The notes under the pieces: model-generated
The model's input: only the letters and a program-made list of their open reading frames with translations
What the model was told of the DNA's origin: nothing
The model's database searches: none
Assembly: GCA_030141605.1 (NCBI GenBank)
Contig: JAQGDQ010000356.1
Coordinates: 1 to 43,793, forward strand
Length of the DNA stretch: 43,793 nucleotides
Direction: 5' to 3'
Source of the DNA: Tubiluchus corallicola
Lineage: Eukaryota; Animalia; Priapulida
Shown here: piece by piece, positions 2,519 through 43,793 of the stretch
Layout: each line of letters opens with the position of its first letter
How positions within the stretch are numbered: position 1 is the first letter of the stretch
Position numbers and translations under genes: made by a program

Positions 2519-5500
2519 GTAAATTTGCAACGAGTACAATGATTAAAATCTGTATTAAAAATCATCCGTTTATTATAGCTTTGATACAGTTTGATCTGCT
2601 TTGTCTGTAAAAATACTATAATTTTTATTTAAAATCTGCAACAATCTTGTCTAAAAGTATTTTATATTTTTTACCTGCATGAATGGTTTTAAACAGGGCG
2701 TATCAAGACTTTAAGACTCCCTAGACTGTTAGTTTTTCCCGCCCATTTCTGTTGTGATGTTGTTGTAATGTTTTGGTGCATAAATTTACTTTTGGTGCAT
2801 TAAAAACACTATTAGCGTAGTTTCTACATCGTCACTATTAATTACATGTATTTGCATAGCGCTTATATTCAAGTAGACGGCTCAACTGCTTATTGTGTAA
2901 TGCCCTGCACCTGTTCGTTATGTGGCACTTATATAGCAACTGAGTGCAGTAACTGTCTGCTGTGTGTTATAAAAAGTGCCCTTTACATGAATATGAAAGG
3001 CGCCCTGGGCTATAGCTTTGTTAGGCTATTGGTTAACAGTATTTAATACGTCCCTGGTTTTAAACCTGTGTCAAAGGTATTAGTTCTTAAAGTTTACACC
3101 AGTATAGTAGGTTATGAGTTTACTTTGCTTAGGCTTTAAATCAAAATACCAACCCTCTAATGACATTTTAATTTGCAGTTAAAAATATTTAAATCACCAC
3201 CCAATATACATGCATAAAATGTCTTAATTGACATCAATCAAGAAATAACAACTTAAAAGTGATTACTTAAAAGGCTAATACAGCAGGTGCCGCGTATTAG
3301 ACTCACGGTAATGTAGAATCAATCGCTTAATTGTCTCAAAAACGTCTAGTACAAGCTACACACTTGTCGTTACACGCTGCTTGCACTGATGTAGTGATGT
3401 AAACAAAGTGACGGCAAGCCAACTAGTGGTCAGCTTGCAATTTGACGAATTGTGTCCGTAATACAGGGAACTTTTAACAGTCCAGAACTTGATCAGTTAC
3501 CCGTAAAAGCGAAATACGAGTGTAATTATTTTGCTACCTTGTCGTGATTAATTTCATGTTATTATACTACTATCAATAACTGTTTTTTATGACATAATAG
3601 ATAACGAGATTCATTAGAAAGCAAAAAATTGTATTAGTAAGCTTTGTTGTTTAACAATGTGGATTGTTTTTAGTTGATAATAGTAACTGTTGCTGTAAAA
3701 AGTTTGTTTAGGCACCAGGAGGGATGTGTTGCCCCGGTAACCGGATGACTCAGTTTTTGTTCCAAATGGGTGCATCCAAGTGTGAAGTTATCGCGGCTTT
3801 AGATTGCTTTAGCACAGTTTTATTGCAGAAACTTTCTAACATTTTTTTATGAAAAATTCAAATAAACTTAGTTTCCCGAAAGCTTGGCTTTTCCTTTAAA
3901 CACTCAATTCATATTTCTATAAGAATTTGCTTTTATCACAACTAAGATTGAGTCACGCTATCTTTTACAGCTGACACAAACTCATCACATGAGGTGAAAT
4001 CTTCCAATGAAAATGGTACATCTCAAGCTTCAGGTTTTTCTCATTAATATTTATATGTTCGTGTAACTGTGACATTTGTTGTTAAGTTCACCATGTTTTT
4101 TAAGCTTTTTATGAGAAGCATTTCTGAATGTAAAACTTTTTATAGCTTTCACTTTTTATGTTTATCCCAAAGATACATCATTGCAAATGTTGTTTATTTA
4201 TTATCCTGTTTGTTTGTAAAATCTGTTTTTGTTTTTCTACTGATTAAGTAATTTTGTCTGTAAGAACTGGCACAGAAAGCTTAACTGTAACTGTTTTGTT
4301 CAGTGGGTGAAGTTCAGTTGACACCTCTTCAGCATGCAATAAGTAGTACACAAAGATTAACTGTAACTGTTTTGTCCAGTGGGTGAAGTTCAGTTGACAC
4401 CTCTTGAGCAAGCAATAAGTATTACACAAAGCTTAACTGTAACTGTTTTGTTCGGTGGGTGAAGTTCAGTTGACACCTCTTGAGCAAGCAATAAGTAGTA
4501 CACAAAGCTTAACTGTAACTGTTTTGTTCAGTGGGTGAAGTTCAGTTGACACCTCTTCAGCAAGCAATAAGTATTACACAAAGCTTAACTGTAACTGTTT
4601 TGTTCAGTGGGTGAAGTTCAATTGACACCGCTTCAGCAAGTAATAAGTATTACACAAAGATTAACTGTAACTGTTTTCTTCGGTGGGTGAAGTTCAGTTG
4701 ACACTTCTTGAGCAAGCAATAAGTAGTACACAAAGATTAACTGTAACTGTTTTGTTCAGTGGGTGAAGTTCAGTTGACACCTCTTCAGCATGCAATAAGT
4801 AGTACACAAAGCTTAACTGTAACTGTTTTGTTCGGTGGGTGAAGTTCAGTTGACACCTCTTCAGCAAGCAATAAGTATTACACAAAGCTTAACTGTAACT
4901 GTTTTGTTCAGTGGGTGAAGTTCAGTTGACACCTCTTCAGCAAGCAATAAGTAGTACACAAAGCAACTGAACTTTTTGTCATTGAAGTCGTTGACACCCT
5001 TCAGCAAGCAATAAGTAGTACAAAAGCTTAACTGTAACTGTTTTGTTCAGTGGGTGAAGTTCAGTTGACACCTCTTCAGCAAGCAATAAGTATTACACAA
5101 AGCTTAACTGTAACTGTTTTGTTCGGTGGGTGAAGTTCAGTTGACACCTCTTCAGTATGCAATAAGTATTACACAAAGCTTAACTGTAACTGTTTTGTTC
5201 GGTGGGTGAAGTTCAGTTGACACCTCTTCAGTATGCAATAAGTATTACACAAAGCTTAACTGTAACTGTTTTGTTCGGTGGGTGAAGTTCAGTTGACACC
5301 TCTTCAGCATGCAATAAGTATTACACAAAGCTTAACTGTAACTGTTTTGTTCGGTGGGTGAAGTTCAGTTGACACCTCTTCAGCAAGCAATAAGTAGTAC
5401 ACAAAGCTTAACTGTAACTGTTTTCTTCGGTGGGTGAAGTTCAGTTGACACCTCTTCAGCAAGCAATAAGTATTACACAAAGCTTAACTGTAACTGTTTT

Positions 5501-8500
5501 GTTCGGTGGGTGAAGTTCAGTTGACACCTCTTGAGCAAGCAATAAGTATTACACAAAGCTTAACTGTAACTGTTTTGTTCGGTGGGTGAAGTTCAGTTGA
5601 CACCTCTTCAGCAAGCAATAAGTATTACACAAAGTTTAACTGTAACTGTTTTGTTCAGTGGGTGAAGTTCAGTTGACACCTCTTCAGCATGCAATAAGTA
5701 GTACACAAAGCTTAACTGTAACTGTTTTGTTCGGTGGGTGAAGTTCAGTTGACACCTCTTCAGCAAGCAATAAGTATTACACAAAGCTTAACTGTAACTG
5801 TTTTGTTCAGTGGGTGAAGTTCAGTTGACACCTCTTCAGCAAGCAATAAGTATTACACAAAGCTTAACTGTAACTGTTTTGTTCAGTGGGTGAAGTTCAG
5901 TTGACACCTCTTCAGCAAGCAATAAGTATTACACAAAGCTTAACTGTAACTGTTTTCTTCGGTGGGTGAAGTTCAGTTGACACCTCTTCAGCAAGCAATA
6001 AGTAGTACACAAAACTTAACTGTAACTGTTTTGTTCAGTGGGTGAAGTTCAGTTGACACCTCTTCAGCAAGCAATAAGTAGTACACAAAGATTAACTGTA
6101 GCTGTTTTGTTCAGTGGGTGAAGTTCAGTTGACACCTCTTGAGCAAGCAATAAGTAGTACACAAAGATTAACTGTAACTGTTTTGTTCGGTGGGTGAAGT
6201 TCAGTTGACACCTCTTGAGCAAGCAATAAGTAGTACACAAAGATTAACTGTAACTGTTTTGTTCAGTGGGTGAAGTTCAGTTGACACCTCTTCAGCAAGC
6301 AATAAGTATTACACAAAGATTAACTGTAACCGTTTTGTTCAGTGGGTGAAGTTCAGTTGACAGCCCTTCAGCAAGCAATAAGTAGTACACAAAGATTAAC
6401 TGTAACTGTTTTGTTCAGTGGGTGAAGTTCAGTTGACAGCCCTTCAGCAAGCAATAAGTATTACACAAAGATTAACTGTAACTGTTTTGTCCAGTGGGTG
6501 AAGTTCAGTTGACACCCCTTCAGCATGCAATAAGTAGTACACAAAGATTAACTGTAACTGTTTTGTCCAGTGGGTGAAGTTCAGTTGACACCTCTTGAGC
6601 AAGCAATAAGTAGTACACAAAGATTAACTGTAACTGTTTTGTTCAGTGGGTGAAGTTCAGTTGACACCTCTTCAACAAGCAATAAGTAAGCACCATGGTG
6701 AAGATTTGTCTCCAGAGGGCTTGGCTGCTAAGAATCGACAAGGTATTGCTATTCTAGTTCACGGAGGACCAATTTCAGGTTCGTACAATTAATCTATTTG
6801 CATGAAATAATTTGTTATTTTGTAGGATGTTTTATACTGACAGAAAATGTCTCATTCAAACTTTACATCTTTTCAATTATCTTGCTGGCGTTGTTTGTTT
6901 GCTAAATTTTCTCCCACTAAGAGTTTTGTCAAATTAAAAAGATTTAACGTAGAGGTAGTTAAACACTCGAAAGTATTTGATCAGGAGTACTCAGCTACTT
7001 CTGAATATTTGACTGCAAATACTCATGTACTCATTAATATCTCAACATAACTACTCAAGTATTGATGAATATTAAATCATTCTAGAGCATTCGTCAGTAT
7101 TTGATCATAAGTACTCATGCACCAATTAATATTTGATCATACTTGAGTATTCATGAGTATTTGATCATAACTACTTGAGTAGTGGTGAATATTTGAGAAC
7201 ACTCGAGTACGCATGAGTATTTGATCCCTGTACTCAAGTACTGATGAACGTTTCAATGCTCAAGTGCTTGTGAACATTTTGTCATGAAATTTGGCAGTCA
7301 TGCCACCTGTAGAAAACAATGTGGAAAGAGTAGTCAAATGGTCACGGCATGTGCTGAATGAGCAATGTTAAGCAATGACAAGTACAGGTAGTGAACGTGA
7401 CCTTCAGGTTCAGCGTTAGCTGAGGATGACCATGCTAATTTGTAGAGAGAGGATGTGTTTATATTTGAAGATAGTTAAGACACCTCTGCTGGTTCAGTGT
7501 CTCATCTTAGAAGACTGTTTTTAGTAAAAACTCAGGTTGCCATCTTGGCACAGTCACCCATCCTGTTACCGAATGCTAGATGCTTGCTAAAAAGTGCATA
7601 AGAAAGACAGTTCTGTCGTTCGTTTTTATGAAGTGTTTCCTTGGTCATGTTAAGTTTATTTTAGTCTTTTAAACTTTCAGGGAAGACCACATGTGCACAG
7701 GAATTATCCACACTTTACAGCGTGCCATGTCTTACAGTTGATAACATTGTTCTAGAAGCCATGTCAAGCCGTTCAACACCTGCTGGTTCGTTACTCAACA
7801 TTATTTTCATTCTGCGTGACAAAAACGTTTTTTGAGTCAAGAAAAAGTTTAATTATGATGTAGATGTTGTTTTGCTTGTACAAACTGCAGTGAAACAGAC
7901 TTGAAACAGTATATTGTGGACAGTGAATTAAAAATAAGATTGAGTCTAATCAATCGTCCGGTTTTTCTTTATGATTAGACATTCAAGTTAACATTTTTCC
8001 AGGTTTATGTGCGTACATGCTATGTGTTGAAACAGCTCATTTGTTTTCCAGGTTTACGTGCGTATATGTAATGTGTCGAAGCAGCTCACTTGTTTTCCAG
8101 GCTTACATGTGTACATGTTATGTGTTGAAGCAGTTCACTTGTTTTCCAGGCTTACGTGCGTACATGTTATGTGTTGAAGCAGTTAACTTGTTTTCCAGGC
8201 TTACGTGCGTACATATTATGTGTCGAAGCAGCTCACTTGTTTTATAGGTTTACATGCGTACATGTTATGTGTTGAAGCAGTTCACTTGTTTTCCAGGTTT
8301 ACGTGAGTACATGTTATGTGTTGAAGCAGATAATTTGTTTTCCAGGCTTACGTGCATACATGTTATGTGTTGAAGCAGCTAACTTGTTTTCTAGGTTTAC
8401 ATGCGTACATGTTATGTGTTGAAACAGCTCACTTGTTTTACAGGTTTACGTGAGTACATGTTATGTGTTGAAGCAGCTAATTTGTTTTCCAGGTTTACGT

Positions 8501-11500
8501 GCGTACATGTTATGTGTTGAAGCAGCTCATTTGTTTTCCAGGTTTACGTGCGTACATGTTATGTGTTGAAGCAGGTAATTTGTTTTACAGGTTTACGTGC
8601 GTACATGTTATGTGTTGAAGCAGCTCATTTGTTTTACAGGTTTACGTGAGTACATGTTATGTGTTGAAGCAGCTCATTTGTTTTACAGGTTTACGTGCGT
8701 ACATGTTATGTGTTGAAGCAGCTCACTTGTTTTACAGGTTTACGTGAGTACATGTTATGTGTTGAAGCAGGTAATTTGTTTTCTAGGTTTACATGCGTAC
8801 ATGTTATGTGTTGAAGCAGGTAATTTGTTTTACAGGTTTACGTGAGTACATGTTATGTGTTGAAGCAGGTAATTTGTTTTCCAGGCTTACGTGCATACAT
8901 GTTATGTGTTGAAGCAGCTAACTTGTTTTCTAGATTTACATGCGTACATGTTATGTGTTGAAACAGCTCACTTGTTTTACAGGTTTACGTGAGTACATGT
9001 TATGTGTTGAAGCAGCTAATTTGTTTTCCAGGTTTACGTGCATACATGTTATGTGTTGAAGCAGCTCACTTGTTTTACAGGTTTACGTGAGTACATGTTA
9101 TGTGTTGAAGCAGGTAATTTGTTTTACAGGTTTACGTGCGTACATGTTATGTGTTGAAGCAGCTCATTTGTTTTACAGGTTTACGTGAGTACATGTTATG
9201 TGTTGAAGCAGGTAATTTGTTTTACAGGTTTACGTGCGTACATGTTATGTGTTGAAGCAGGTAATTTGTTTTACAGGTTTACGTGCGTACATGTTATGCG
9301 TTGAAACAGCTTATTTGTTTTACAGGTTTACGTGAGTACATGTTATGTGTTGAAGCAGCTCATTTGTTTTGCAGGTTTACGTGCGTACGTGTTATGTGCT
9401 GAAGAGGCTAACTTGTTTTCCAGGTTTATGTGCCTACATGTTATGTGTTGAAGCTGCTAACTTGTTTTACAGGTTTACGTGCGTACATGTTATGTGTTGA
9501 AGCAGCTAATTTGTTTTACAGGTTTACGTGCGTACATGTTATGCGTTGAAGCAGCTACTACTATCAAAGGAGTTGAGAACTTTATGAAGGCAGCTGATAC
9601 CCATGATTCAGTTGAGTTGAAGCAAACTTTTCCACCAGGTTCGTCATGTTTATTCCTAAGAACAAATGTTTTGTTGATTTGCATTGGAAAACTTTGTTTC
9701 TAGTATTTCTAGTTTTGCAATAAGGTACTTTAAAGGCTAAACAGAGCAAAAATGTTAGAGCATTGAATCTTTGAATGTATAGAAATTATCACTGTAAATT
9801 TAAGATTAAATACAGAAGTGTTGATGCTTACCGAAGAAGCTTGGATATTTCATATTTTGGTCTTTTTACCATTCATCATGGTATTTAAACCTATTTATTC
9901 ATCCAGTTAGCCCAACACAGCAAAATACAATTTATACAAGCACAAATTAACAATGCATTACAGTGCCATGAGCGTAGCAGAAGAAATTTACTTATAAGCT
10001 AAGCTCAACATGGATAAGACTTTATTAATGACGTAAACAACAAAAATATGTTAAACAGAGCAAAGAAAACCATATTGATGATGATGACATTGTTGTGTAT
10101 AAAACTTTAACCTTGGCATTAAATGTTTGTATTGCGTTATTGTGGTCAACCAGGGAAAAGTCTTTCACTAGCACCAACCAAGTTAGATACAAGAACATTT
10201 TGTTCCCAGGGATTCGTGGAATTAATGCTGAAAGAAAGGACATTGGAAACGTACAAGTTTTGCTCACTACATGCACTAGTTGTCGTAGTTATAATTGGAG
10301 ATGATACTATAATAAGTATTAGGAACCATTTATTCTCCCAGAATCATTAGTCCGACTGTACACTGCATCTGCAGCACTTATGACTTGTGATATGCAGACC
10401 TGTTTGAATTCAACTGGTTCAGTGAGAGAAAGTCGATACTATAATAAGTATTAGGAACCATTTATTCTCCCAGAATCGTTAGTCCGACTGTACACTGCTT
10501 CTGCAACACTTACTTGCAGGTAATTCTATAAAACATCAGTAATATAACCACCAAATTACACTGATAATGACACTGAAAATGGTGAATGTGTCACGATCGT
10601 TTGTTATGAACACCATTTCTTTCATAAGTGATAAAACGCGCAAAGTTAAGGATAGTGGTGGCGTGATAGGGCTCGACCAACCGAAAAATTTGGCAGAATT
10701 CCGGACTCTCACTATGACTTCACAAAAACCTATCTCAGTTCTTATATACGGGGAAACTAAGTCATAGATTATCGCTGATAAATTGGCCTTGTTCAGAACT
10801 ACAGTAGTTCAGATGTACAAGAGATTGTCCACGGTAAACTCAGTGAGATACTTATGAATACAGCCAATGTTTCGCAATCGGTAATAAAGGCTTACTCTAT
10901 TAATCTTATCGACCGATTCCAATAAAACATTTGATAACTTTCAGGTTTCAAACCCAAATTGTCACGACGGTTGTCACGCACATCGCGTCAGTCCAGTGCA
11001 AGCAGTCTTACTGCGTCAACTAAAAGAGTGTCTACGGCCGTGGGTCACGACGAGCTAACTAGTCCCGGACCGCTACAAGTAAGACCTAAGCGAACTGGTG
11101 GAACTTCACATGCTTCGGTGAGAATGCGCACTAACACATGTGTTTGGTACTGCATGTTTTTGGCATAGGTTTAAATTCACCATAATAAGTCTTCGCGGTT
11201 CCAGTGATTGATGAATAGCGGCTCTGACACTTACTAACGGAAGAACTGACATCTTGATAACGAAAACATTAATATTCTTACTAGCAAAGGCCCCGCAAAA
11301 TATTTTGCTTATAAATCCACTTATAATCAACAGTGTACGAACATTCTACCTAGTGTTCCTTTATTTACGTAACTCAAAGCCAGCAGCTTTAGTGAATTAA
11401 AGTTATAAGATTATGGACAGAGTATGATGGATGAAGTCAGAATAGTGGCTTTGCGGCAGAACATTGGCTTTCCAAGCGGAAATCGTGTGAAATGGAACCT

Positions 11501-11803
11501 CCAATCAACTTATCACAATCAAATCAGAAATAAGAGGTATAAGTTTTGCAAAAAACGGCCGAAAAATGGCCATTTTTGGAGGTTTTTCGCCCCCTTCCCC
11601 GTTCTTCCCGGTGTGCCCGATTCGAAAAATAAACCCCTAATGGCACGACACTAGATCGAGACCTTTCGTTTGATGTATAGATCGCCGCAAATGGTGCCCT
11701 CGCCGAAGCTGTAGCCTCGAATCTTATATATATAATATACCAGCGAAATTCATATATACGATATATATGTATATATATATATATATATATATACATATAT
11801 ATC

Positions 11804-11852
<49 letters not shown>

Positions 11853-14800
11853 AGCGAAACTAATATATACGATAATAAAAACATGTAAGTTGTGAAGAGT
11901 GTGGGTATAATGGGATCATTGACATTCCAGTAGAAGAAACATGTACATTCTGATCATCTTAATATTGACAGTCATTGTTTTAAATACCTTCCATATTGTG
12001 GTAGTTAGATAGCATAGCTGTTTGTTAAATAGGTTAGATGCACGAGCGCATTACTTTGTCGTATATTAGCATTTTGTAATTGCTGCTTCTAATATTGTTT
12101 TAACTAATTATTTTTTCATTTGATCTAAATGTGTTTTAATTAAACAAACTGTTGCGAATGTTCACGCTGAAAGCATCGGTAAGTAGATTTTATGTGTGCG
12201 TGTTTGTGTGCATGCATGTGTGCGTGTATGTGTGCGCATGTGCACTGCAGATGCAATTACTTAAGTAATATTTTGAATTGACATAAATATAATGCTTTGC
12301 AATGTAGGGATTGTCTACATAGTAATTGAGTTTTTTTAGACGAACACTTGTAAAAAATTTGTATGTAGCTCTATGTAAATGAAACATACAATGTGGTCGT
12401 TTCTTCTCCTCTTTTCCTTCTTCCTATACCTAATCTTACTATTTTTCTCCATTCCATCATGTCTACTAACCCTAACCATTCTTTCATTCACTCATTTGTG
12501 CCACCTTAACAGGCCAAGCTTTCAATGTGTCATACAGCAACTCTTTTATTTGGTTAATTTGACTTCATCAACGTTTTTTTACCTATACTATTTTTTGTTT
12601 CAATAATATTGTATGTTGATGTATTGTATATGCATTGCTGGAGTGAAATAAATTGATTGATTGATTGATTGATTGATTGACTTTTCAAAATTAACCCTAT
12701 ACTCTTCGTTGCTCTACGATGTTTACGCTCGTAAAGTCACAAAGATTTCTGCTGCTGTAACAATGGCATAACAGCTGATGGGTATGAAGTTTTAAAGTTA
12801 ACTGTGTTTATTTACATATTTTAGACTGATGGGTATGAAGGCACTCGCGGACGTTATCTTAACATATTAACTGAAAGTGGAGAAATGCTGCATAGTTGTG
12901 TGTTGCCATCAGACCTCCTGGTGGAGATATTAGCTGATAGACTTCAGGTGGGAGTTGTTCTTTAATATTTCAACTCGTTCAATGATTTCACTTTGGTTAG
13001 ATCTGCTAGAAGCTGTAAGCTATTAAAACACCCATTCTTACTTTAAGACTGAAGTACATGGATCATTCTTCATGTAGTTGCTTGCAAGCTGTAAGCTATT
13101 AAAACAACTGTTCTTACTTTAAGATTTAAGTACATGGATCATTCTTCATGTATTTTCTTGCAAGCTATAAGCTATTAAAACAACTGTTCTTACTTTAAGA
13201 TTTAAGTACATGGATCATTCTTCATGTATTTTCTTGCAAGCTATAAGCTATTAAAACAACTGTTCTTACTTTAAGATTTAAGTACAGCGACCATTCTTCA
13301 TGTAGTTGCTTGCAAGCTATAAGCTATTAAAACAACTGTTCTTACTTTAAGATTTAAGTACATGGATCATTCTTCATGTATTTGCTTGCAAGCTATAAGC
13401 TATTAAAACAACTGTTCTTACTTTAAGATTTAAGTACAGCGACCATTCTTCATGTAGTTGCTTGCAAGCTATAAGCTATTAAAACAACTGTTCTTACTTT
13501 AAGATTTAAGTACAGCGACCATTCTTCATGTATTTGCTTGCAAGCTGTAAGCTATTAAAACAACTGTTCTTACTTTAAGATTTAAGTACAGCGACCATTC
13601 TTCATGTATTTGCTTGCAAGCTGTAAGCTATTAAAACAACTGTTCTTACTTTAAGATTTAAGTACAGCGACCATTCTTCATGTATTTGCTTGCAAGCTGT
13701 AAGCTATTAAAACAACAGTTCTTACTTTAAGACTGAAGTACATGGATCGTTCTTCATGTACTTGCTTGCAAACTATAAGTTATTAAAACAACAGTTCTTA
13801 CTTTAAGACTGAAGTACATGGATCGTTCTTCATGTACTTGCTTGCAAACTATAAGCTATTAAAACAACAGTTCTTACTTTAAGACTCAAGTACAGGGATC
13901 ATTCTTCATGTATTTGCTTGCAAACTATAAGCTATTAAAACAACAGTAAATGTTTCATAGTATCTGTTGTTTTTATAGAAGCCGGACTGTTACAAGGGTG
14001 TAGTAATTGATGGAGTAAACACGTTATTTACATCAAATCCTATAGATGCGACGGCAGCCATACTGAAGTGTTTCAACAACAGAAAACACATCTATTTCAT
14101 CAACTTGGTGTACCCTTTGCAGAAATATAAAGAAAAATTACTTGCGGAGAAAAATAAAGCAGGTAACTGTGAAGTCTTCTCGTTTCCTTAGGGCAAGAAA
14201 AGTAATAAAATCATTTTGGCATTTGCATTGCAGTCAAAATTAAGCAACAGTGAGCATGGTTAGTAGATGTAGGAGAGTGATAACTAGAAAAAAATGTTTC
14301 TTACACTGTCATTAGCCCTTCCCCTTGTTGGCAGAGTCAAACACAACTCAGGAATCCCTGCTGGTTCAGTGTCTCATCATGCAGGACCATCATTAGTGGA
14401 TCATCATAGTGAATCATCATGGTTGATCATCACTCCAAGTTTGCCACAACCATTTACCTTGAGTGTAGGCCTTACTGCAGTTGTACTTTGCTTCGTAGTG
14501 TGTTAAACTGTGAAACTTACTTCATAATGAAGTAAACTCCAAGTTTGCCACAACCATTTACCTTGAGTGTAGGCCTTACTGCAGTTGTTCTTTGCTTCGT
14601 AGTGGGTTAAACTGTAAAACTTACTTCATAATGAAGTAAACTCCAAGTTTGCCACATCCATTTACCTTGAGTGTAGGCCTTACTGCAGTTGTTCTTTGCT
14701 TCGTAGTGTGTTAAACTGTAAAACTTACTTCATAATGAAGTAAACTCCAAGTTTGCCACATCCGTTTACCTTGAGTGTAGGCATTACTGCAGTTGTACTT

Positions 14801-20800: not shown

Positions 20801-20843
20801 TAATAGTAATTGTAATAGTAATAATAGTAATAATAATAATAAT

Positions 20844-20896
<53 letters not shown>

Positions 20897-20926
20897 CAAC
20901 AACAACAACAACAACAACAAACAACG

Positions 20927-20959
<33 letters not shown>

Positions 20960-29900: not shown

Positions 29901-32900
29901 ACTTTGGCCCACTCCTCGCGACCAAAGCTAGAGATATGTATGTTTTTATTGGTTTTTATTTGTGTTGCTTTTAAATTCTTGATCAGTATCACTGCATTTC
30001 TGAAACTTTTGCAGTGGAATGTAATGGATTAAGTGTGTTTAATTTTTTCTTTTTTCTTTTTCCGCAGCCTCAGGGATGGAGCAGAAAACATGGCTACATT
30101 TAATTTGGTTAATGATAGTCCGCTGACTGCGCATTTAAGCATAACTTTTCAACACGATACGTTAGGCCGGGTCTTTCTGTTGCAACCCGTAAACTCGGAC
30201 CTAATTCCAAGCGAAGCTCAGATAACAGTGCAGCCAAACAGTACAGAGGTATTACATTGTAAAGTAATCACAGTGTAACCAAACAGTACAGAGGTATAAC
30301 CTTGTAAAGTAATCACAGTGCAACCAAACAGTACAGAGGTATTACATTGTAAAGTAATCACAGTGCAACCAAACAGTACAGAGGTATAACATTGTAACCT
30401 GATCACAGTGTAACCAAACAGTACAGAGGTATAACATTGTAACTCAGTCACAGTGCAAAAAGCAGTACTGAGGTATAACATTGTAACGTAATAACAGTGC
30501 AACTAAACAGTACTTAGGTATAACATTGTAACTCAATCACAATGCAACCAAACAGTACAGAGGTATAACATTGTAACCTAATCACAGTGCAACCAAACAG
30601 TACAGAGGTATAACATTGTAACCTAATCGCAGTGCAACCAAACAGTACAGAGGTATAACATTGTAACCTAATCGCAGTGCAACCAAATAGTTCAGAGGTA
30701 TAACATTGTAACTCAATCACAGTGCAGCCAAACAGTACAGAGGTATAACATTGTAACTCAATCACAGTGCAACCAAACAGTACAGAGGTATAACATTGTA
30801 ACTCAATAACAGTGCAACCAAACAGTTCAGAGGTATGACATTGTAACTCACACACAGTGCAACCAAACAGTTCAGAGGTATAACATTGTAACTCAGTCAC
30901 AGTGCAACCAAACAGTTCAGAGGTATAACATTGTAACTCAGTCACAGTGCAACCAAACAGTACAGAGGTATAAGATTGTAACTCAGTCACAGTGCAGTCA
31001 AACAGTACAGACGTATAACATTGTAACCTAATCACAGTGCAACCAAACAGTTCAGAGGTATAACATTGTAACTCAGTCACAGTGCAACCTAACAGTTCAG
31101 AGGTATAACATTGTAACTCAGTCACAGTGCAACCAAACAGTTCAGAGGTATAACATTGTAAAGTAATCACAGTGCAGCCAAACAGTACAGAGGTATAACA
31201 TTGTAACCTAATCGCAGTGCAACCAAACAGTACAGAGGTATAACATTGTAACCTAATCGCAGTGCAACCAAATAGTTCAGAGGTATAACATTGTAACTCA
31301 CACACAGTGCAACCAAACAGTTCAGAGGTATAACATTGTAACTCAGTCACAGTGCAACCAAATAGTTCAGAGGTATAACATTGTAACTCAGTCACAGTGC
31401 AGTCAAACAGTACAGACGTATAACATTGTAACTCACACACAGTGCAACCAAACAGTACAGAGGTATAACATTGTAACTCAATCACAGTGCAGCCAAACAG
31501 TACAGAGGTATAACATTGTAACTCAATCACAGTACAACCAAACAGTTCAGAGGTATAACATTGTAACTCAGTCACAGTGCAATCAAACAGTTCAGAGGTA
31601 TAACATTGTAACTCAATCACAGTGCAGCCAAACAGTACAGAGGTATAACATTGTAACTCAATCACAGTACAACCAAACAGTACAGAGGTATAACATTGTA
31701 ACTCAATCACAGTGCAACCAAATAGTTCAGAGGTATAACATTGTAACTCAATCACAGTGCAATCAAACAGTTCAGAGGTATAACATTGTAACTCAATCAC
31801 AGTGCAATCAAACAGTTCAGAGGTATAACATTGTAACTCAATAACAGTGCAACCAAACAGTACAGAGGTATAACATTGTAACCTAATCGCAGTGCAACCA
31901 AACAGTACAGAGGTATAACATTGTAACTCAATCACAATGCAACCAAACAGTACAGAGGTATAACATTGTAACCTAATCACAGTGCAACCAAACAGTACAG
32001 AGGTATAACATTGTAACCTAATCGCAGTGCAACCAAATAGTTCAGAGGTATAACATTGTAACTCAATCACAGTGCAACCAAACAGTTCAGAGGTATAACA
32101 TTGTAACTCAGTCACAGTGCAACCAAACAGTTCAGAGGTATAACATTGTAACTCAGTCACAGTGCAACCAAACAGTTCAGAGGTATAACATTGTAACTCA
32201 GTCACAGTGCAACCAAACAGTTCAGAGGTATAACATTGTAACCTAATCACAATGCAATCAAACAGTACAGAGGTATAACATTGTAACTCAGTCACAGTGC
32301 AACCAAACAGTTCAGAGGTATAACATTGTAACTCAGTCACAGTGCAACCAAACAGTTCAGAGGTATAACATTGTAACTCAGTCACAATGCAACCAAACAG
32401 TACAGAGGTATAACATTGTAACTCAGTCACAGTGCAACCAAACAGTTCAGAGGTATAACATTGTAACCTAATCACAATGCAACCAAACAGTACAGAGGTA
32501 TAACATTGTAACTCAGTCACAGTGCAACCAAACAGTACAGAGGTATAACATTGTAGCTCAATCACAGTGCAACCAAACAGTTCAGAGGTATAACATTGTA
32601 ACTCAATCACAGTGCAACCAAACAGTACAGAGGTATAACATTGTAACTCAGTCACAGTGCAACCAAACAGTTCAGAGGTATAACATTGTAACCTAATCAC
32701 AGTGCAACCAAACAGTACAGAGGTGTAACATTGTAACTTGATCACAGTGCAACCAAACAGTACAGAGGTATAACATTGTAACTTGATCACAGTGCAACCA
32801 AACAGTACAGAGGTATAACATTGTAACTTGATCACAGTGCAACCAAACAGTTCAGAGGTATAACATTGTAACTTGATCACAGTGCAACCAAACAGTTCAG

Positions 32901-35900
32901 AGGTATAACAGGTATGTCATTGTTGACCATGTTACAGGTTTTGTCTGTTTGGGCTTATCCGAAGGCTGTCGAGGAGGAAAATGATGCGGTCTTGTGCTCC
33001 GTAAAAGACAATCCGGAGACGGTCGTCTTCCCGATCAGATGTCACGGCTTCCGACCGGAAATTGTCGTTGAAACAAAAGTACTGAATTTTGAGAAAGTTC
33101 TCCTCCGCAGGTGATGTTTCATTTGTTATAGAAAACAATTTCACTCCACGTGATAGAGGATTTTTTCTTAACTCCGCTTGATTGAATCATGTTATTGTTG
33201 GTTTTTAGGAAAGAAACTAGAGTGATGCGATTGAGAAACCCGACAATGATTCCGGTTGCGTGGAGATTATCCGGTCTTGAAGCTCTCGGTGATGACTTCT
33301 CGTTCCAGAAGGACAACGGAATTGTAGAACCTTTGTCTGAGCTGCAACTGAACGTCTCGTTCCGTCCCGTGAAGGCTGTTAACATCAAGAAAGTTGTCAG
33401 GGTCGAGGTATGTAGAACCTTTGTCTGAGCTTCAACTGAACGTCTCGTTCCGTCCCGCAAAGGCTGTTAACATCAAGAAAGTTGTCAGGGTCGAGGTACA
33501 TCACTAAAGTCTAATGGCTATTCTTAATTAGTGACATTGTCATGCAATTTAACGTGGCTATTCTTAATTCTTTCTGGAACGTAAGCGTTTGCTCCATTTT
33601 GCATGAGTTCATGAAAAACTTTTCCCACTAAGCAGTGATTACATTATATTGGATAATTTTTGTAGGTTTCTACTCCTCATACAATGGATGTTTATGTATC
33701 ATTACATATGAAATGCATTTGTTTATGTTGGCCCAAAAAATCAATTTTTGACAAATAAATTGAAAAAATCTTTCAGTAACTGCAGTGTTTGCACTGTAAC
33801 AATGTACAGTATCACTTGTGTGAAATCGACTATTATGCAGAAAATTTCAACTATCCAGACACAACACTCTGATAAACTTTGATTTCAAGTCTACTCTATC
33901 TTTAAGAAGAAATTCCTGTTAAAAGGCGAAAAGGCTTTAATTTCTCCTTAGCTGTTTGGCAGTACTGGTACTTTTACAATTGCAAACTATCTATATTGAA
34001 TACAGCAGATCTCTCAACTGGTTTTTAGAACTGCTAATAAGCTTGAATGATAACACTGAAGAAGTTGAATTTGAATTTAAATTTGTTGAAAAAGAAGTTG
34101 AATTTAAAGAGTGTAGTCATTGATTTTTAGATATCTGATGCTCAAGGTCATCATGGATTGGTTTCAGCAGACACTATACAAATCATTGGAGAAGCATATG
34201 ATGTTGCTATTGATATAAGCTTTCCAAAAGGTATTGTATGTTCACTAAAAGATAAGAATATTTTTGTGATATTTTTTAAAGCAAAGGAAAGAACAAGTCA
34301 CTCAGCATGTTGTTGTTTATTTTACTGTTGTCACTTAAACTGTTTGCGGTGTGCTAAAGGAAAGAACAAGTCACTCAGTATGTTGGGTTTATTTTACTAT
34401 TGTCACTTAAACTGTTTGTGGTGTGCTAGAGGAAAGAACCAATCACTTAGCATGTTGGGTTTATTTTGCTGCTATCACTTAAACTGTTTGTGGTGTGCTA
34501 AAGGAAAGAACAAGTCACTCAGTATGTTGGGTTTATTTTACTGTTATCACTTAAACAGTTTGTGGTGTGCTAAAGGAAAGAGCAAATCACTCAGTATGTT
34601 GGGTTTATTTTACTGTTATCACTTAAACTGTTCGTGGTGTGCTAAAGGAAAGAATAAGACACTCAGTATGTTGGGTTTATGTTACTGTTATCACTTAAAC
34701 TGTTTGTGGTGTGCTAAAGGAAAGAACAAGTCACTAAGTATGTTGGGTTTATTTTACTGTTATCACTTAAACTGTTCGTGGTGTGCTAAAGGAAAGAATA
34801 AGACACTCAGTATGTTGGGTTTATTTTACTGTTATCACTTAAACTGTTTGTGGTGTGCTAAAGGAAAGAACAAGTCACTTAGTATGTTGGGTTTATTTTA
34901 CTATTATCACTTGATTTTATTTGTATTTCAGGCAGTGACGGTAGTATTGAATTTGGAGCTGTAAGAATGTTTGAAGACTCTAAACAGCAGTGCTTCTTGA
35001 AAAATAAAGGAAAATACGAAATTCAATTCAAGTAAGTTTTGTTTAATAATCATTGTTTCTGCCTTTTTTGAGTAAGTCTTCTTTATTTGTATCAGAAAAT
35101 ATTTGATCAATCGTATATATTAACTCTACTGGTATGTTTTATATATATAATATTCGAGACTACAGCTTCGACGACAGCACCATTTGCGGCGATCTATACA
35201 TCAAACGAAAGGTCTCGGTCTAGTGTCGTGCCATTGGGGGTTTACTTTTCGAATCGGGGTCGAAAAACCTCCAAAATGGCCATTTTTCGGCTGTTTTTTG
35301 CAAAACTTATATCGCTTGTTTCTAGACAGGCCGGGGGTGGCTGACGCAAAGCCATTGTTCTGACGTCATCCATTATACTCTTTATAACTTTAATTCAGTA
35401 AAAGCTGCTGCTGCTGGCTTTGCATTGTAAATGAGGACTATGTAGAATGTTCGCGCATTATTGATTATTAGTGTATTTATATGCCAATTTTTTTGCGGGG
35501 CCTTTGCTAGTAGGATATTAATATCTGAATTGTTTTTGTGAACTTCAGTGCACTATTTATGTATGCGACTTACGACCACATTTAATTTTAAACTGATTGG
35601 TTATAAAATGATTTCGGACCCGTATATTCTAGTGGTGCACTCCTATGCATAAGGCGTTGTGGGGGTACGCACACTAAGGTTGCATTTCCACTGCGTCCAC
35701 ACAGACACAGACTTTTCTGTCCGCACGTTTTACGTCTGCAAAAGTTGTTTCCACTGCGCCCACACAGACACAGACTCTTCTGTCCGCATGTTTTACCTCT
35801 GCAAAAGTTCTTTCCACTGCGTCCACACAGACACAGACTTTTCTGTCCGCACGTTTTACGTCCGCAAAAGTTGTTTCCACTGCGCCCACACAGACACAGA

Positions 35901-38900
35901 CTCTTCTGTCCGCATGTTTTACCTCCGCAAAAGTTGTTTCCACTGCGTCCACACGGACACAGACTTTTCTGCACGTTTTACGTCCGCAAAAGTTGTTTCC
36001 ACTGCTTCCACAGAGACATAGGCTATTCTGTCCGCACGTTTTACCTCCGCAAAAGTTCTTTCCACTGCGTCCACACAGACATAGGCTTTTCTGTCCGCAC
36101 GTTTTACGTCCGCAAAAGTTGTTTCCACTGCGTCCACACAGACATACGCTTTTCTGTCCGCATGTTTTACCTCCGCAAAAGTTATTTCCACTGCGTCCAC
36201 ACAGACACAGACTTTTCTGTCCGCACGTTTTACGTCCGCAAAAGTTGTTTCCACTGCGTCCACACAGACATAGGCATTTCTGTCCGCACGTTTTACGTCC
36301 GCAAAAGTTGTTTCCACTGCGTCCACACGGACACAGACTTTTCTGTCAGCACGTTTTACGTCCGCAAATGTTGTTTCAACTGCGTCCACACAGACATAGG
36401 CTTTTTTATCCGCACATATATATAAGATTTGCAATAAAAATTTGGATAGCGTACAGTGAATTGACTACTAGATAAGCTTTCATGAATTGCTTTATTTCTC
36501 CTGTTGGTTCAGTGCCCTAGCAGCAGCAAAGTATATTGCATAATTGTATATATGTATGTATATTGCTTTCCAGTGGAAATTGAATGGACCGATTGTTTTC
36601 ACTTTAAATAAAAAATGGTTTTTATTATATAGATAACAATGTTTTGAAACTCAGGGATTTATAATTATAGACTTATAATTAAAGTCGATATATACTATTG
36701 CGTTTGTAAATATGTACTATAAATTTAAAAATGAGTGGATCACGGAATCCCAAAATCAGACCTAAATTTGCAGAAACGTTAACATTATGACAAAAGCTAG
36801 ATGTTGACTATTGACTTCACTAATGACTTCAAAGGCTCCTTGAACCCACCGCTGCTTAGTAAAATCTCTGTGACTTTATTTGGGATAACTTTTGTCGTAC
36901 AAACCTCTACAGCGGGCGCAATTTGTTCGTTCTCAATTATGAAAATGAACTTGTTCACACGCAGAAAAAATGATTAAACGATTAAAGTGCGGATGTGTGC
37001 GAGTACGTGGCTTTCCGTGCGGATGCAGTGGAAACGACAAGGATGTAAAACAATGATTTGCAAAGGCGCGCTGTTTTTTCCGTGTGAGTCATACAGAATA
37101 AATCTGTGTCTGTGCGGGTTTGTGTGTGTCTGTGCGTGTCTGTGTGCATCTGTGTGTGTCTGTGCGTGTCTATGTGTCTGTGCGTGTCTGTGTGCATCTG
37201 TGCATGTCTGTGTGCATCTGTACGTGTCTGTGTGTGTCTGTGCGTGTCTATGTGTCTGTGCGTGTCTGTGTGCATCTGTGGGTGTCTGTGGGCGTTTGTG
37301 TGTGTCTGTGTGTCTATGTGTCTGTGCATGTCTGTGCGGGTCTGTGCGGGTCTGTGTGTGTCTGTGCGTGTCTGTGTGTGTCTGTGCATGTCTGTGTGCA
37401 TCTGTACGTGTCTGTGTGTGTCTGTGCGTGTCTATGTGTCTGTGCGTGTCTGTGTGCATCTGTGGGCGTCTGTGTGTGTCTGTGTGTCTATGTGTCTGTG
37501 CATGTCTGTGTGGATGCAGGGGAAACGCGGCCTTAGTGTGGTGATGTCTTCGGATGAATTTATCGAAATTTAGATGACAATTTAAAATTAATTTGTTAAA
37601 AAATACACTTATATCTCGATTTGTCGGTCCTGGCTTTTAGAGATAGGAAAAGAATTGGGCAAAATCTTGTCTACTAAAAAGTCAAGCATGCTACGGACAC
37701 AGTCCGTTATTTTGCGAGCTGGCTGCTAGTTGGCTGGCTGTCACTTTGTTTACTCCATTACATCAGCGCAACCAACTAACGAATAATGATGTTAGCGTAC
37801 AAAAGTGAAGTATCATAAAAATAGTAAAAGCTCATTGGTCACACAAAAGTATCTTATTTAAGCATGTGCAGAAAAAATATAGAGTCAATTATGCGGAGTT
37901 ATTTGAGTCAATTGCCAACGGTTCTTATATACTCTTGTACGGTAGCGGCCCGAACTAGACATTTTTGAGATAATTCTACATGAGTACTAACACACGGTGC
38001 CTATTGTATCAGTTTAGTATTGATAAATACGGATAATCGGCAAATTCAGACCGACGTCTCTCCACTTTTGTCCGCAAACTGTGATATGAGTGTAGAAGGA
38101 AATATAGGTAATAATTAGTTATATATGATTAATTAATTAAGTTGCACAAAATCGAACAGATGTCGTAGATCGACGACTACCTGTATTATTTTCGTTGTGT
38201 CTAAGTTATTTCTTTTTTGTTGTGTTGAAAATAAATTTCGGTTTTAATACATTTCAGATTCGAACTCGTGTCAAGAGTAGGATCGATCACAGACATTACT
38301 AGCTTGTTCTGTGTTGCTCCAATGAAAGGTAGCCTAGGTGCTAATGACAGAGCTGTACAGGTATTGCTCCTTTCTTTCATAAATTTTTTGCCTTGTTACA
38401 GTAAGTCCTCACCTAATGACTCTGTGTTTAGCGAACTTCGCTTTAATGACGCTGACCTTTTGACACCTTTCATTTACTAAACAACACACGCTTCGCTTTA
38501 GCGACGCTGACCTTTTGACACCTTTTATTCACTAAACGACACACGTTTTGCTTTAACAACGCTGACCTTTTGACACCTTTTATTCACTAAACGACACACG
38601 TTTTGCTTTAACAACGCTGACCTTTTGACACCTTTTATTCACTAAACGACACGCTTCGCTTTAACAACGCTGACCTTTTGACACCTTTTATTCACTAAAT
38701 GAAACACGTTTCGCTTTAACAACGCTGACCTTTTGACACCTTTTATTCACTAAACGACACATGTTTCGCTTTAACAATGCTGACCTTTTGACACCTTTTA
38801 TTCACTAAACGACACATGTTTCGCTTTAACAATGCTGACCTTTTGACACCTTTTATTCACTAAACGACACGCTTCGCTTTAACGACGCTGACCTTTTGAC

Positions 38901-41900
38901 ACCTTTTATTCACTAAACGACACACGTTTTGCTTTAACAACGCTGACCTTTTGACACCTTTTATTCACTAAACGACACACGTTTTGCTTTAACAACGCTG
39001 ACCTTTTGACACCTTTTATTCACTAAACGACACACTTCGCTTTAGCGACGCTGACCTTTTGACACCTTTTATTCACTAAACGACACGCTTCGCTTTAGCG
39101 ACGCTGACCTTTTGACACCTTTTATTCACTAAATGAAACACGTTTCGCTTTAATGACGCTGACCTTTTGACACCTTTCATTTACTAAACGAGGCATGTTT
39201 CGATTTTTTTCAGCTTTCAGGTGCTGAAATTTTGCTTGCTGTACTGTTAACAGAAATCACAGTAATAATTTGCGCTAGGCAGTCAGAGGCCCGCAATGGT
39301 GATTCATTGCTGGCTACTCACTAATTACTATAGCACGTTCCCAGTGTGTAGAAATGAAATTCCTCTGGTAAAAATTTCTCATGTCACATTACTAGTTTAA
39401 TTATTACTGCATTCACCTCTTTTGCATTTAATTTGTTGGAAGAACAACACTAGAAATTGAACGTTAATTTATATCAGCACAATATCAATGCTATATATCA
39501 ATGCAATTGAAAGCTTTACATATCCAGACATTATTGATTTTTGTCCTGTAGAGCAACTGAAAGCTTTACATATCCAGGCATTATTGATTTTTGTCCTGCA
39601 GGGCAACTGAAAGCTTTACATTTCCAGGCATTATTGATTTTTGTCCTGCAGGGCAACTGAAAGCTTTACATATCCAGGCATTATTGATTTTTGTCCTTTA
39701 GGGCAACTGAAAGCTTTACATATCCAGGCATTATGAGTATTTGTCCTGTTGGGCAAGTGAAAGCTTTACATAGCCAGGCATTATGAATATTTGTCCTGCA
39801 GGGCAACTGAAAGCTTTACATAGCCAGGCATTATTGATTTTTGTCCTGCAGGGCAACTGAAAGCTTTACATATCCAGGCATTATTGATTTTTGTCCTGCA
39901 GGGCAACGGAAAGCTTTACATATCCAGGCATTATTGATTTTTGTCCTGCAGGGCAACTGAAAGCTTTACATATCTAGGCATTATTGATTTTTGTCCTGCA
40001 GGGCAACTGAAAGCTTTACATATCCAGGCATTATTGATTTTTGTCCTGTAGGGCAACTGAAAGCTTTACATATCCAGGCATTATTGATTTTTGTCCTGCA
40101 GGGCAACTGAAAGCTTTACATATCTAGGCATTATTGATTTTTGTCCTGCAGGGCAACTGAAAGCTTTACATATCCAGGCATTATTGATTTTTGTCCTGCA
40201 GGGCAACTGGAAGCTTTACATAGCCAGGCATTATGAGTATTTGTCCTGCAGGGCAACTGAAAGCTTTACATAGCCAGGCATTATTGATTTTTGTCCTGCA
40301 GGGCAACTGAAAGCTTTACATAGCCAGGCATTATGAATATTTGTCCTGCAGGGCAACTGAAAGCTTTACATATCCAGGCATTATTGATTTTTGTCCTGCA
40401 GGGCAACATAGTAAGTGCTCTTACATTGGCCAAGCATTATTGATCGTTGGGTGGGAAATGCAACTGAATGATGTTACATTGTTTTCTATAGAAGGTATTG
40501 TTTCACATAATAATGTTTTGCTGAATGACACATTTTGTTGGAACGCATTAGCATCTTCAAACGTGGACTTACTGAATTTGTTGTGTAAATATGCAATTTA
40601 GAAATGCTGTTTTTCTGCAATGCTGAAATTCTTCTCACCACATTTGTAGATAATTTTTCTAGATGACTCATGTATTTTCAGGCACTAATTACATTTAGAC
40701 CGACTCATGAAGTGTCTTTGAAAGATGAACCAATCCTCAAATGTTTAGTTATTGAGCCAAACTTGAAGCCTGGTGGTGAGACAATAGCCTGTATACCTAT
40801 CCAGGTCACAGCTAGAGCATTTTATAGCAAGTATGTGTCTGATCCGGAGTTACGTGAATTGTTAATGTTAATTATTGTTATTGTTAATTACTTGTAACTT
40901 GTTTACTAATTGCTCTTTTGTGTCAGGTAGTTAAAGTGCAAGAAAACACTCTTCATAATTAAAGATTAAAAATTCGTTATTTGTTCATATTTTGTTCATC
41001 TACGTCTTATTGCATGTAGAGCTTGTAAGAGCAGTTACGCTGTATAAAGTTTGAAACTTAAACTGGAACTGTAAGTCATTCGAAACAAGTTTAGATAACA
41101 TTGCATAAAGATTGCAAAAATATAGTGCGCTCTTCGTTAACTGAGCAAAAATATTAATTACTTTAATGTGTCACTAAGGTAATGTTTTTTGGTGAACCAG
41201 TGGTGTACACTGGGATGGTAATATGGCAGACATTTTTAATTACTTTGAATTTTCTTTTGCAATTTCATAAACCATTCACATGTTGTATCACTTTGTATGG
41301 AAGGTTTTATAAGACAAACGCGAGAATTCCATTTTTCCATCGTGTGTTCATGCGCTATTATTTTTTAATTATATTTTTAGGTTCAAGATTGTTCCAGCTG
41401 CTGATATTAATTTTGGTACTCTCCACCTGGGAACAAGAAAGAGCAGAAATCTTCTGATAGAGAATGTAGGCGAATACGAGTTTAAGTACTGCATAACCAA
41501 AGTAGTGCAGTTGCCGTCAGATCAAAATGCAAAAGGATTGAGGTATCCGTACTAGCACTTGATTTTGATTAATAGGAACACTGCAAGTAACAGGGCTTTT
41601 CATTGTTGATGATTGATGATGATAGTGAAAAGGTCAAAGGTTAAGTGTCCCGGACAATGCATTTGTGTACACTTGAGAACACCTCACTGCCTATGCTATT
41701 GTAATAGTAACAGTTTTAATGTGTTTTAACAGCTAGCTAGAACTTTACCTAGTTCATTTTTTCTTGTTCAAAACAAGATCCTGCCAGTAAATCATTCTAT
41801 GTGTAGACTAGTGGATAAATAAGTAAAATTATTGAATTTACTGAACTGATGTGGCAGATGCCTTTGTTTTTCCCACACATCATATACAGGCTAATACATA

Positions 41901-43042: not shown

Positions 43043-43130
43043 GTAAGCAATTTTCAGATGTTTGCGCAATTCAATTCAATCGATTTTTTTCAAATGAAAT
43101 ACTGAATGATGGAAGTGGTTAGCATTTATA

Positions 43131-43793
43131 TTCATCAATGTTTTTCAGACTTGTTGATGAAGTTTCATCAGCAGCTGTAGTTGTTCTCGTTTTCATCAAT
43201 GTTTTTCAGAATTGCTGGTGAAGTTTCATTAGCAGCTGTAGTTGTTCTAGTTTTCATCAATGTTTTTCAGACTTGTTGGTGAAGTTTCATCAGCAGCTGT
43301 AGTTGTTCTCGTTTTCATCAATGTTTTTCAGACTTGCTGGTGAAGTTTCATTAGCAGCTGTAGTTCTCATTTTCATCAATGTTTTTCAGAATTGCTGGTG
43401 AAGTTTCATTAGAAGCTGTAGTTGTTCTCATTTTCATCAATGTTTTTCAGGCTTGCTGGTGAAGTTTTGTCAGCAGCTGTAGTTGTTCTCGTTTTCATCA
43501 ATGTTTTTCAGACTTGCTGGTGAAGATTCATTAGCGGCTGTAGTTGTTCTCGTTTTCATCAATGTTTTTCAGACTTGCTGGTGAAGTTTCATTAGCAGCT
43601 GTAGTTGTTCTAGTTTTCATCAATGTTTTTCAGACTTGCTGGTGAAGTTTCATTAGCAGCTGTAGTTGTTCTCGTTTTCATCAATGTTTTTCAGACTTGC
43701 TGGTGAAGTTTCATTAGCAGCTGTAGTTGTTCTAGTTTTCATCAATGTTTTTCAGACTTGCTGGTGAAGTTTCATTAGCAGCTGTAGTTGTTC
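43131..43793 (+). repeat. 61-bp tandem array, >=11 copies, running off the window end
   Basis: Unit ttcatcaatgtttttcagacttgctggtgaagtttcattagcagctgtagttgttctcgtt. Confidence 0.95.

Follow-up and report, generated by a model that had tools for sequence, protein, structure and literature searches.

Tandem repeats that span exon-intron boundaries were named mirages in amphioxus, where the accessible text of the report describes them in Adh3 (Canestro et al. 2002, as cited there) and in the globin genes BflGb6 and BflGb9 (PMC3087553). They lie at both 5' and 3' boundaries, and splicing was normal by RT-PCR according to the available parts of two papers (PMC3087553, PMC3902484). Their units range from 10 to 160 bp, AG or GT is found in many, but not all, units, the arrays are unstable in length, and a model of intron gain was proposed from them in the accessible sections (PMC3087553). 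Lancelet troponin C and PGBD5 add further mirages, PGBD5 with two such arrays (accessible text of PMC3902484). In human F7, the first unit of a 37-bp VNTR in IVS7 spans the exon-intron boundary, and the identical pseudo-donors downstream of it are functional yet silent, the most upstream donor being used by oriented scanning (available part of PMC1557585). Human tandem repeats at exon-intron boundaries form new introns and can also activate cryptic sites, as far as the accessible portion of that study goes (De Grassi and Ciccarelli, PMC2812944), and the Rogers 1989 model, as cited in the available text of PMC3087553, derives introns from internal tandem repeats.

Here, we compare these systems with a window of 43,793 nt from Tubiluchus corallicola, i.e., the whole stretch analyzed, positions 1 to 43,793 of the forward strand of contig JAQGDQ010000356.1. 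A preliminary description had reported that at least six splice junctions of one HYDIN segment in this window are amplified into tandem arrays and had found no named system to match. All six arrays were recovered by TRF at the same places and with the same units and copy numbers, each spanning an AG or GT of our exon model, and the mirages of amphioxus, on the accessible text of those papers, are a named system that does match.

Comparison with known boundary-spanning repeats

On four tested features, the HYDIN arrays are a set of mirages. Six of the 22 nonredundant arrays with a period of at least 10 in the gene span a junction of the host gene, and 16 overlap none. Both boundary types are hit, with four acceptors (exons 3, 5, 11, and 13) and two donors (exons 18 and 20). 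The units (45, 49, 76, 88, 99, and 132 bp, in 2 to 60 copies) differ by locus, with lengths unrelated among the six arrays, compared to 10 to 160 bp in the available account of amphioxus. AG or GT is frequent without being universal, being kept in 126 of 139 scored decoys, and the 13 losses are all AG-to-GG changes in the exon 3 array. The seed did not detect one degenerate 76-mer unit, which is absent from the scored set.

The HYDIN case differs in that six junctions are affected within 41 kb and with up to 60 copies, compared to 2 to 7 copies in amphioxus globins and PGBD5 in the accessible reports; those reports showed normal splicing and length polymorphism, whereas the HYDIN arrays are known from genome sequence alone. 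Its host is a nonvertebrate animal other than amphioxus. The layout of the F7 repeat recurs in the exon 18 and exon 20 donor arrays, although F7, in the available part of its report, is one site in one gene tested in mammalian cells, with acceptor arrays not addressed. As in the accessible descriptions of intron-gain models, splice signals were copied by tandem duplication. However, the Rogers model, as described there, builds both ends of a new intron from a single exonic AG|GT unit and its copies; this holds for none of the six HYDIN introns, each of which has its far splice site outside the array, in unique sequence between 27 and 1832 nt from it (238, 209, 1832, and 1229 nt at the acceptors; 27 and 632 nt at the donors). 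Intron gain by duplication of AGGT-type sequence, which the preliminary description had mentioned as a proposed route, therefore does not apply, and the HYDIN arrays lengthen existing introns rather than create introns.

Gene model of the HYDIN segment

The gene segment (2398 to 43042, forward strand), with ends set from sequence and homology, comprises 26 exons with 3707 nt of coding sequence for 1235 aa. The exon model was built by hand from the whole window, then revised by phase and homology, and is a prediction independent of RNA. Every exon end is a canonical AG or GT and no stop occurs across the 1235 aa, in agreement with the unbroken reading frame reported earlier. Homology identifies the gene as HYDIN, a cilia gene, with the segment corresponding to approximately residues 1860 to 3260 of the mouse and platypus proteins. 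Most exons were matched, in order, by tblastn with homologs; Pfam Hydin_ADK matches exons 4 and 7, exon 20 matches mouse HYDIN chain 9ijj_4G at residues 2989 to 3054 (E value, 1e-15), and exon 3 matches homologs with an E value of 4e-12. Exon 6 (10945 to 11078) fills a phase gap, and adding it makes the numbering agree with that of the preliminary description. Single-exon queries against longer proteins gave no homolog match.

Among the junction exons, the repeated pieces of exons 3, 5, and 18 align with homologs: LQARELCDRAA is the homolog counterpart of the start of exon 5, and MTLRPDEKQE is that of ITVQPNSTE, the repeated part of exon 18. Conservation is poor around exon 11, which was placed by frame continuity, and exon 13 has a weaker alignment. 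Exon 18 also has about nine extra residues (30190 to 30220) before its repeated end compared to bowfin homolog P0093, possibly an older in-frame duplication.

With platypus HYDIN as the query, one starfish was found among the best 120 of 596 matches, the other named rows being vertebrate, and a quick tree of 42 rows placed the window protein with the animals but not in the starred vertebrate clade, at a fork without resolution. In run X6, presumed to be RNA by guess, no piece fell on a HYDIN exon among the matches listed.

Six arrays across splice junctions

All six junction arrays lie on the forward strand. Of the four acceptor arrays, that of exon 3 (4272 to 6688; exon, 6647 to 6778) has 32 copies of a 76-bp unit made of about 41 nt of exon and 35 nt of intron, and that of exon 5 (7995 to 9557; exon, 9522 to 9638) has 32 copies of 49 bp. 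The exon 11 array (19092 to 19356; exon, 19288 to 19446) has only two copies of 132 bp that are 93% identical, and use of the upstream copy would lead to a stop. The exon 13 array (21775 to 23549; exon, 23482 to 23625) has 18 copies of 99 bp, each decoy being laid out as an AG, 66 nt of exon, CAG|GTTTTC, and an in-frame TAA.

The exon 18 donor array (30217 to 32910; exon, 30068 to 30248) has 60 copies of 45 bp and occupies intron 18 (30249 to 32937) except for the 27 nt before the next acceptor. After collapse to one unit, this intron is 40 nt long, the next shortest collapsed intron being 98 nt, and the 45-mer array may now be needed for intron 18 to be spliceable. The exon 20 donor array (33323 to 33498; exon, 33209 to 33407) has two copies of an 88-bp unit with 85 exonic and only 3 intronic nt. 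The join of the two copies makes the donor GAG|GTATGT (score, 10.5), upstream of the older GAG|GTACAT (score, 7.6), with score matrices built from approximately 22 to 24 sites of the HYDIN gene alone; this duplication was likely tolerated because the join gave a stronger donor ahead of the older one. The two-copy and many-copy arrays had been taken as stages of one process, a view that their divergence does not bear out: the two-copy arrays are 93% and 96% identical, no closer than the units of the long arrays (90 to 97%), and need not be young.

Candidates and arrays away from junctions

Two further candidates, at exon 7 and at the end of the window, had been proposed. At exon 7, the start of the exon (12826 to 12840) does have a 15-nt copy on the forward strand at 12775 to 12789, 51 nt upstream and behind a weak AG, but the copy is isolated and not an array; it is possibly a decayed duplication. 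When decayed copies of exon edges were sought within 400 nt of all 26 exons, this 15-mer and the six arrays were the only ones to reach 15 nt. At the window end, an acceptor-like array of 11 copies of 61 bp (43131 to 43793, forward strand) runs to the last position. Its status as a junction array is unsupported: after the aligned KDM, homologs read R-[FL]-x-x-G-M-F, the 61-mer units read L-A-G-E-V, unlike the next conserved HYDIN residues, and the window stops there.

The 50-bp array (18 copies; 39503 to 40407, forward strand) carries an acceptor-like CTGCAG|G and borders no real exon. A putative exon behind it (40402 to 40494) was rejected for a phase conflict and because homologs have the neighboring exons, 38258 to 38360 and that at 40682, side by side (P0018 residues 3127/3129), the two also being in phase. 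This array serves as a control for eye-catching false junctions, and arrays of its kind can mislead annotators into false exons. Two other arrays make up most of otherwise short introns and were set aside because they do not include the junction: 12 copies of 76 bp (13010 to 13944) stop 34 nt before the acceptor of an intron that is 172 nt when collapsed, and 9 copies of 72 bp (34283 to 34912) stop 19 nt before the acceptor of an intron that is 143 nt when collapsed. An array of 14 copies of 55 bp (38437 to 39206) is purely intronic.

Other repeats were seen by eye. An interspersed element, likely a high-copy SINE or MITE, occurs in both orientations (290 to 700, 14866 to 15240, 16725 to 16970, 23750 to 24120, and 41600 to 41870), and its copy at 23750 to 24120 has very high summed contig depth. 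At 35685 to 36415 and 37020 to 37530, a 63-bp array and another of the GTGTCTGTGC type are flanked by inverted-looking ends, possibly as parts of a transposon with internal tandem repeats. In intron 5, a stretch of about 70 nt occurs twice, approximately 120 nt apart (10310 to 10380 and 10435 to 10510), and is absent from the TRF output. For 25001 to 25348 and 24252 to 27218, run X1 gave two contigs, of which one matches exactly and the other shows 28 differences over 342 nt, and run X4 gave contigs about 2 to 4.5% different; this suggests high heterozygosity, though the X1 pair might instead stem from copies of a repeat.

Repeat density and junction overlap

Tandem repeats make up 16,909 of the 41,396 nt of the gene span (41%). 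The preliminary description had asked for a permutation test of junction overlap, which we applied to the gene only, counting each array as a single unit and leaving out origins inside exons. With introns uncapped, 6 arrays overlap a junction compared to 2.55 expected (about 2.4-fold; P = 0.03), and 6 of the 16 arrays with a period of at least 40 do so compared to 2.33 expected (P = 0.02), in a window picked for the junction-array trait, which bears on these P values. The excess is lost with capped introns: the expectation rises to 4.5 with a cap at 600 nt (P = 0.28) and to 7.4 at 300 nt (P = 0.82). Capping was applied because bins of high depth mark interspersed repeats that swell the long introns; between 23560 and 30210, 16 of 30 bins have a summed contig depth above 1000, the baseline in unique parts being 10 to 20 (run X1). 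A junction bias of the arrays is thus possible but not shown. A literature search, mainly of freely accessible papers, found no study that tested such enrichment at junctions across a genome.

Exon edges might themselves be the target of a mutational process, such as breaks linked to transcription or splicing that are repaired by short tandem duplication, and this process could have seeded the junction arrays. It would account for six arrays where 2.2 to 2.6 are expected under uniform origin in the collapsed gene (P = 0.015 to 0.03) and for the unrelated unit lengths, which point to independent origins. We nevertheless consider it improbable, given the loss of the excess under capping, the choice of the window for the trait, joins that in our reading share few letters and no common motif, and the 16 of 22 arrays that lie away from junctions. 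The earlier proposal that introns grow outward from exon edges holds insofar as junction-spanning units lengthened introns with the frame intact; a junction-specific process is not needed for this, the 16 other arrays being purely intronic.

Decoy splice sites and variation between units

AG is kept in 17 of 30 decoys of the exon 3 array and in 31 of 31 of the exon 5 array, and GT is kept in 59 of 59 exon 18 decoys. From -20 to +2, all 17 decoys of exon 13 and 12 of 17 decoys of exon 3 are identical to the real acceptor. Extension of the exon through any decoy that keeps its AG or GT leads to a premature stop (126/126). Three arrays have 3n units, and the probability that the nearest decoy contains a stop in every one of them is 0.86 x 0.48 x 0.56, or about 0.23; the stops are compatible with masking by NMD, yet they are not beyond chance.

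These stops, together with AG|GT in 25 of 31 49-mer decoys (22 with a donor score of 6.4 to 6.6), would also suit arrays that serve recursive splicing or that dim HYDIN expression through NMD. A recursive site is marked by AG|GT together with a strong acceptor and a donor that is regenerated; this combination is moderate in 22 of 31 49-mer decoys and absent from the 45-mer array, whose AG|GT sites lack an acceptor signal (score of at most -0.9). Several observations speak against such a role: the 49-mer AG|GT is inherited, exon 5 itself starting with GT; the exon 3 array is losing its AG; and the introns, at 1.7 to 2.9 kb, are far below the length of those known for recursive splicing. We regard this role as very unlikely. 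Of the uses suggested earlier (recursive splicing, microexons, or regulated splicing), recursive and regulated splicing have no positive evidence here, although candidates for in-frame cassettes do exist.

Most units are distinct (22/30 for the 76-mer, 26/31 for the 49-mer, 10/17 for the 99-mer, and 40/59 for the 45-mer), and variants are shared between units and recur along each array. A stop variant and a deletion are present among the 45-mer units. Further criteria for a mirage are copy numbers that vary among haplotypes or cells and concerted evolution within the array from which the boundary units are exempt; here, the most divergent unit is the distal first one, with 10 differences in the 49-mer array and 9 in the 99-mer array, partly since it is incomplete, but the exon-bearing last unit has 1 difference from the consensus. 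The shared variants and distinct units fit biological turnover and bear on whether the arrays are assembly artifacts, a junction read having been repeated by the assembler. Array lengths do come from the assembly alone, and exact copy numbers could be off; the shared and recurring variants, the differences of 4 to 7% in the two-copy cases, one indel included, and the confirmation of such repeats by resequencing in lancelet PGBD5 (accessible text of PMC3902484) make an artifact extremely unlikely.

Candidate in-frame cassettes within the arrays

Some units have a donor of their own. In the 49-mer array, 7 of 31 decoys carry CAG|GTAATT 33 nt past an intact AG, with a score of 10.2, near the top of the gene's real donors; the seven 33-nt AG...GTAATT candidates (8542 to 9260, forward strand) start at 8542, 8738, 8787, 8836, 9081, 9179, and 9228. 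In the 99-mer array, CAG|GTTTTC follows after 66 nt in 17 of 17 decoys and scores 6.7, compared to 7.0 for the real donor of exon 2. All 33-nt and 66-nt cassettes are 3n, in frame, and stop-free. Several real donors of exons 2 to 5 are themselves weak, with T-rich sequences (GTTTTT; GTTCGT three in succession), so weak donors within the arrays are less easily dismissed.

Such units might be spliced as cassette microexons that add peptide repeats to HYDIN, the arrays then being intermediates of exon duplication. The in-frame donors of the 7 49-mer and 17 99-mer decoys would allow it, and the accessible text of PMC3087553 proposes that a mirage unit can be recruited as an exon. However, the C-to-G change that creates the donor, present in 8 of 31 49-mer units, is no commoner than the array's other variants, and the eight variable sites of the 99-mer exon part, read by us as three silent and five replacing, show an excess of replacements. 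An exon of 33 nt is also short for exon definition. The cassette isoform is a prediction that we hold to be improbable. In a related scenario, exon edges would be duplication hotspots and donor-gaining units would be spliced in, making the arrays exon nurseries. We give this scenario little credence; if true, array length would set how many peptide repeats HYDIN, an essential ciliary protein, contains, and a single mutation type would yield both new introns and new exons.

A probable neutral account of the junction arrays

The six arrays are best explained as neutral mirage minisatellites whose decoys the spliceosome likely skips for the one complete exon, a reading to which we assign a probability of roughly 0.8. 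Repeat density, geometry, decay of the decoys, and the consequences of stops were computed, and we infer splice-site use, NMD, and neutrality. The HYDIN gene forms minisatellites at a high rate throughout, mostly off junctions. A duplication across one junction leaves one full exon and truncated intronic copies, the full exon being last at an acceptor and first at a donor. This terminal position of the intact exon, on which the preliminary description had laid weight, is real, but it is forced by tandem geometry and therefore carries no evidential weight. Duplications inside exons would damage the protein and so be purged. Unequal exchange or slippage, to which the unit haplotypes point, would then alter copy number and spread variants along each array.

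In general, exon definition picks a complete exon, and NMD clears transcripts with premature stops. In these arrays, the terminal copy alone would pair both sites around a full exon and would be picked by exon definition together with scanning for the upstream donor, the latter of the kind shown in human F7; use of a decoy would lead to a premature stop and probably to clearance by NMD. Exon definition, already invoked in the preliminary description, is thus a reasonable account of how the arrays are tolerated. Several results count against the neutral reading. Many decoy acceptors equal the real site in strength; enrichment measured with introns uncapped still stands at about 2.4-fold (P = 0.02 to 0.03); the stops in the decoys do not exceed chance; and a donor on the last copy only is not a strict rule, 7 49-mer and 17 99-mer units having their own downstream GT. 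The in-frame AG...GT cassettes of the 49-mer and 99-mer units are the strongest counter-result.

Significance

The HYDIN case belongs to a repeat type that already has a name, is notable for its density and copy number, and adds a nonvertebrate animal to a list of mirages that, in the accessible literature, has so far been mostly amphioxus. Its weight would rise if junction-biased duplication held genome-wide or if cassette inclusion occurred. With 17 exact matches to the real acceptor ahead of exon 13, and with some arrays holding units that have their own donor, the gene offers a natural test of how a 3' splice site is chosen.
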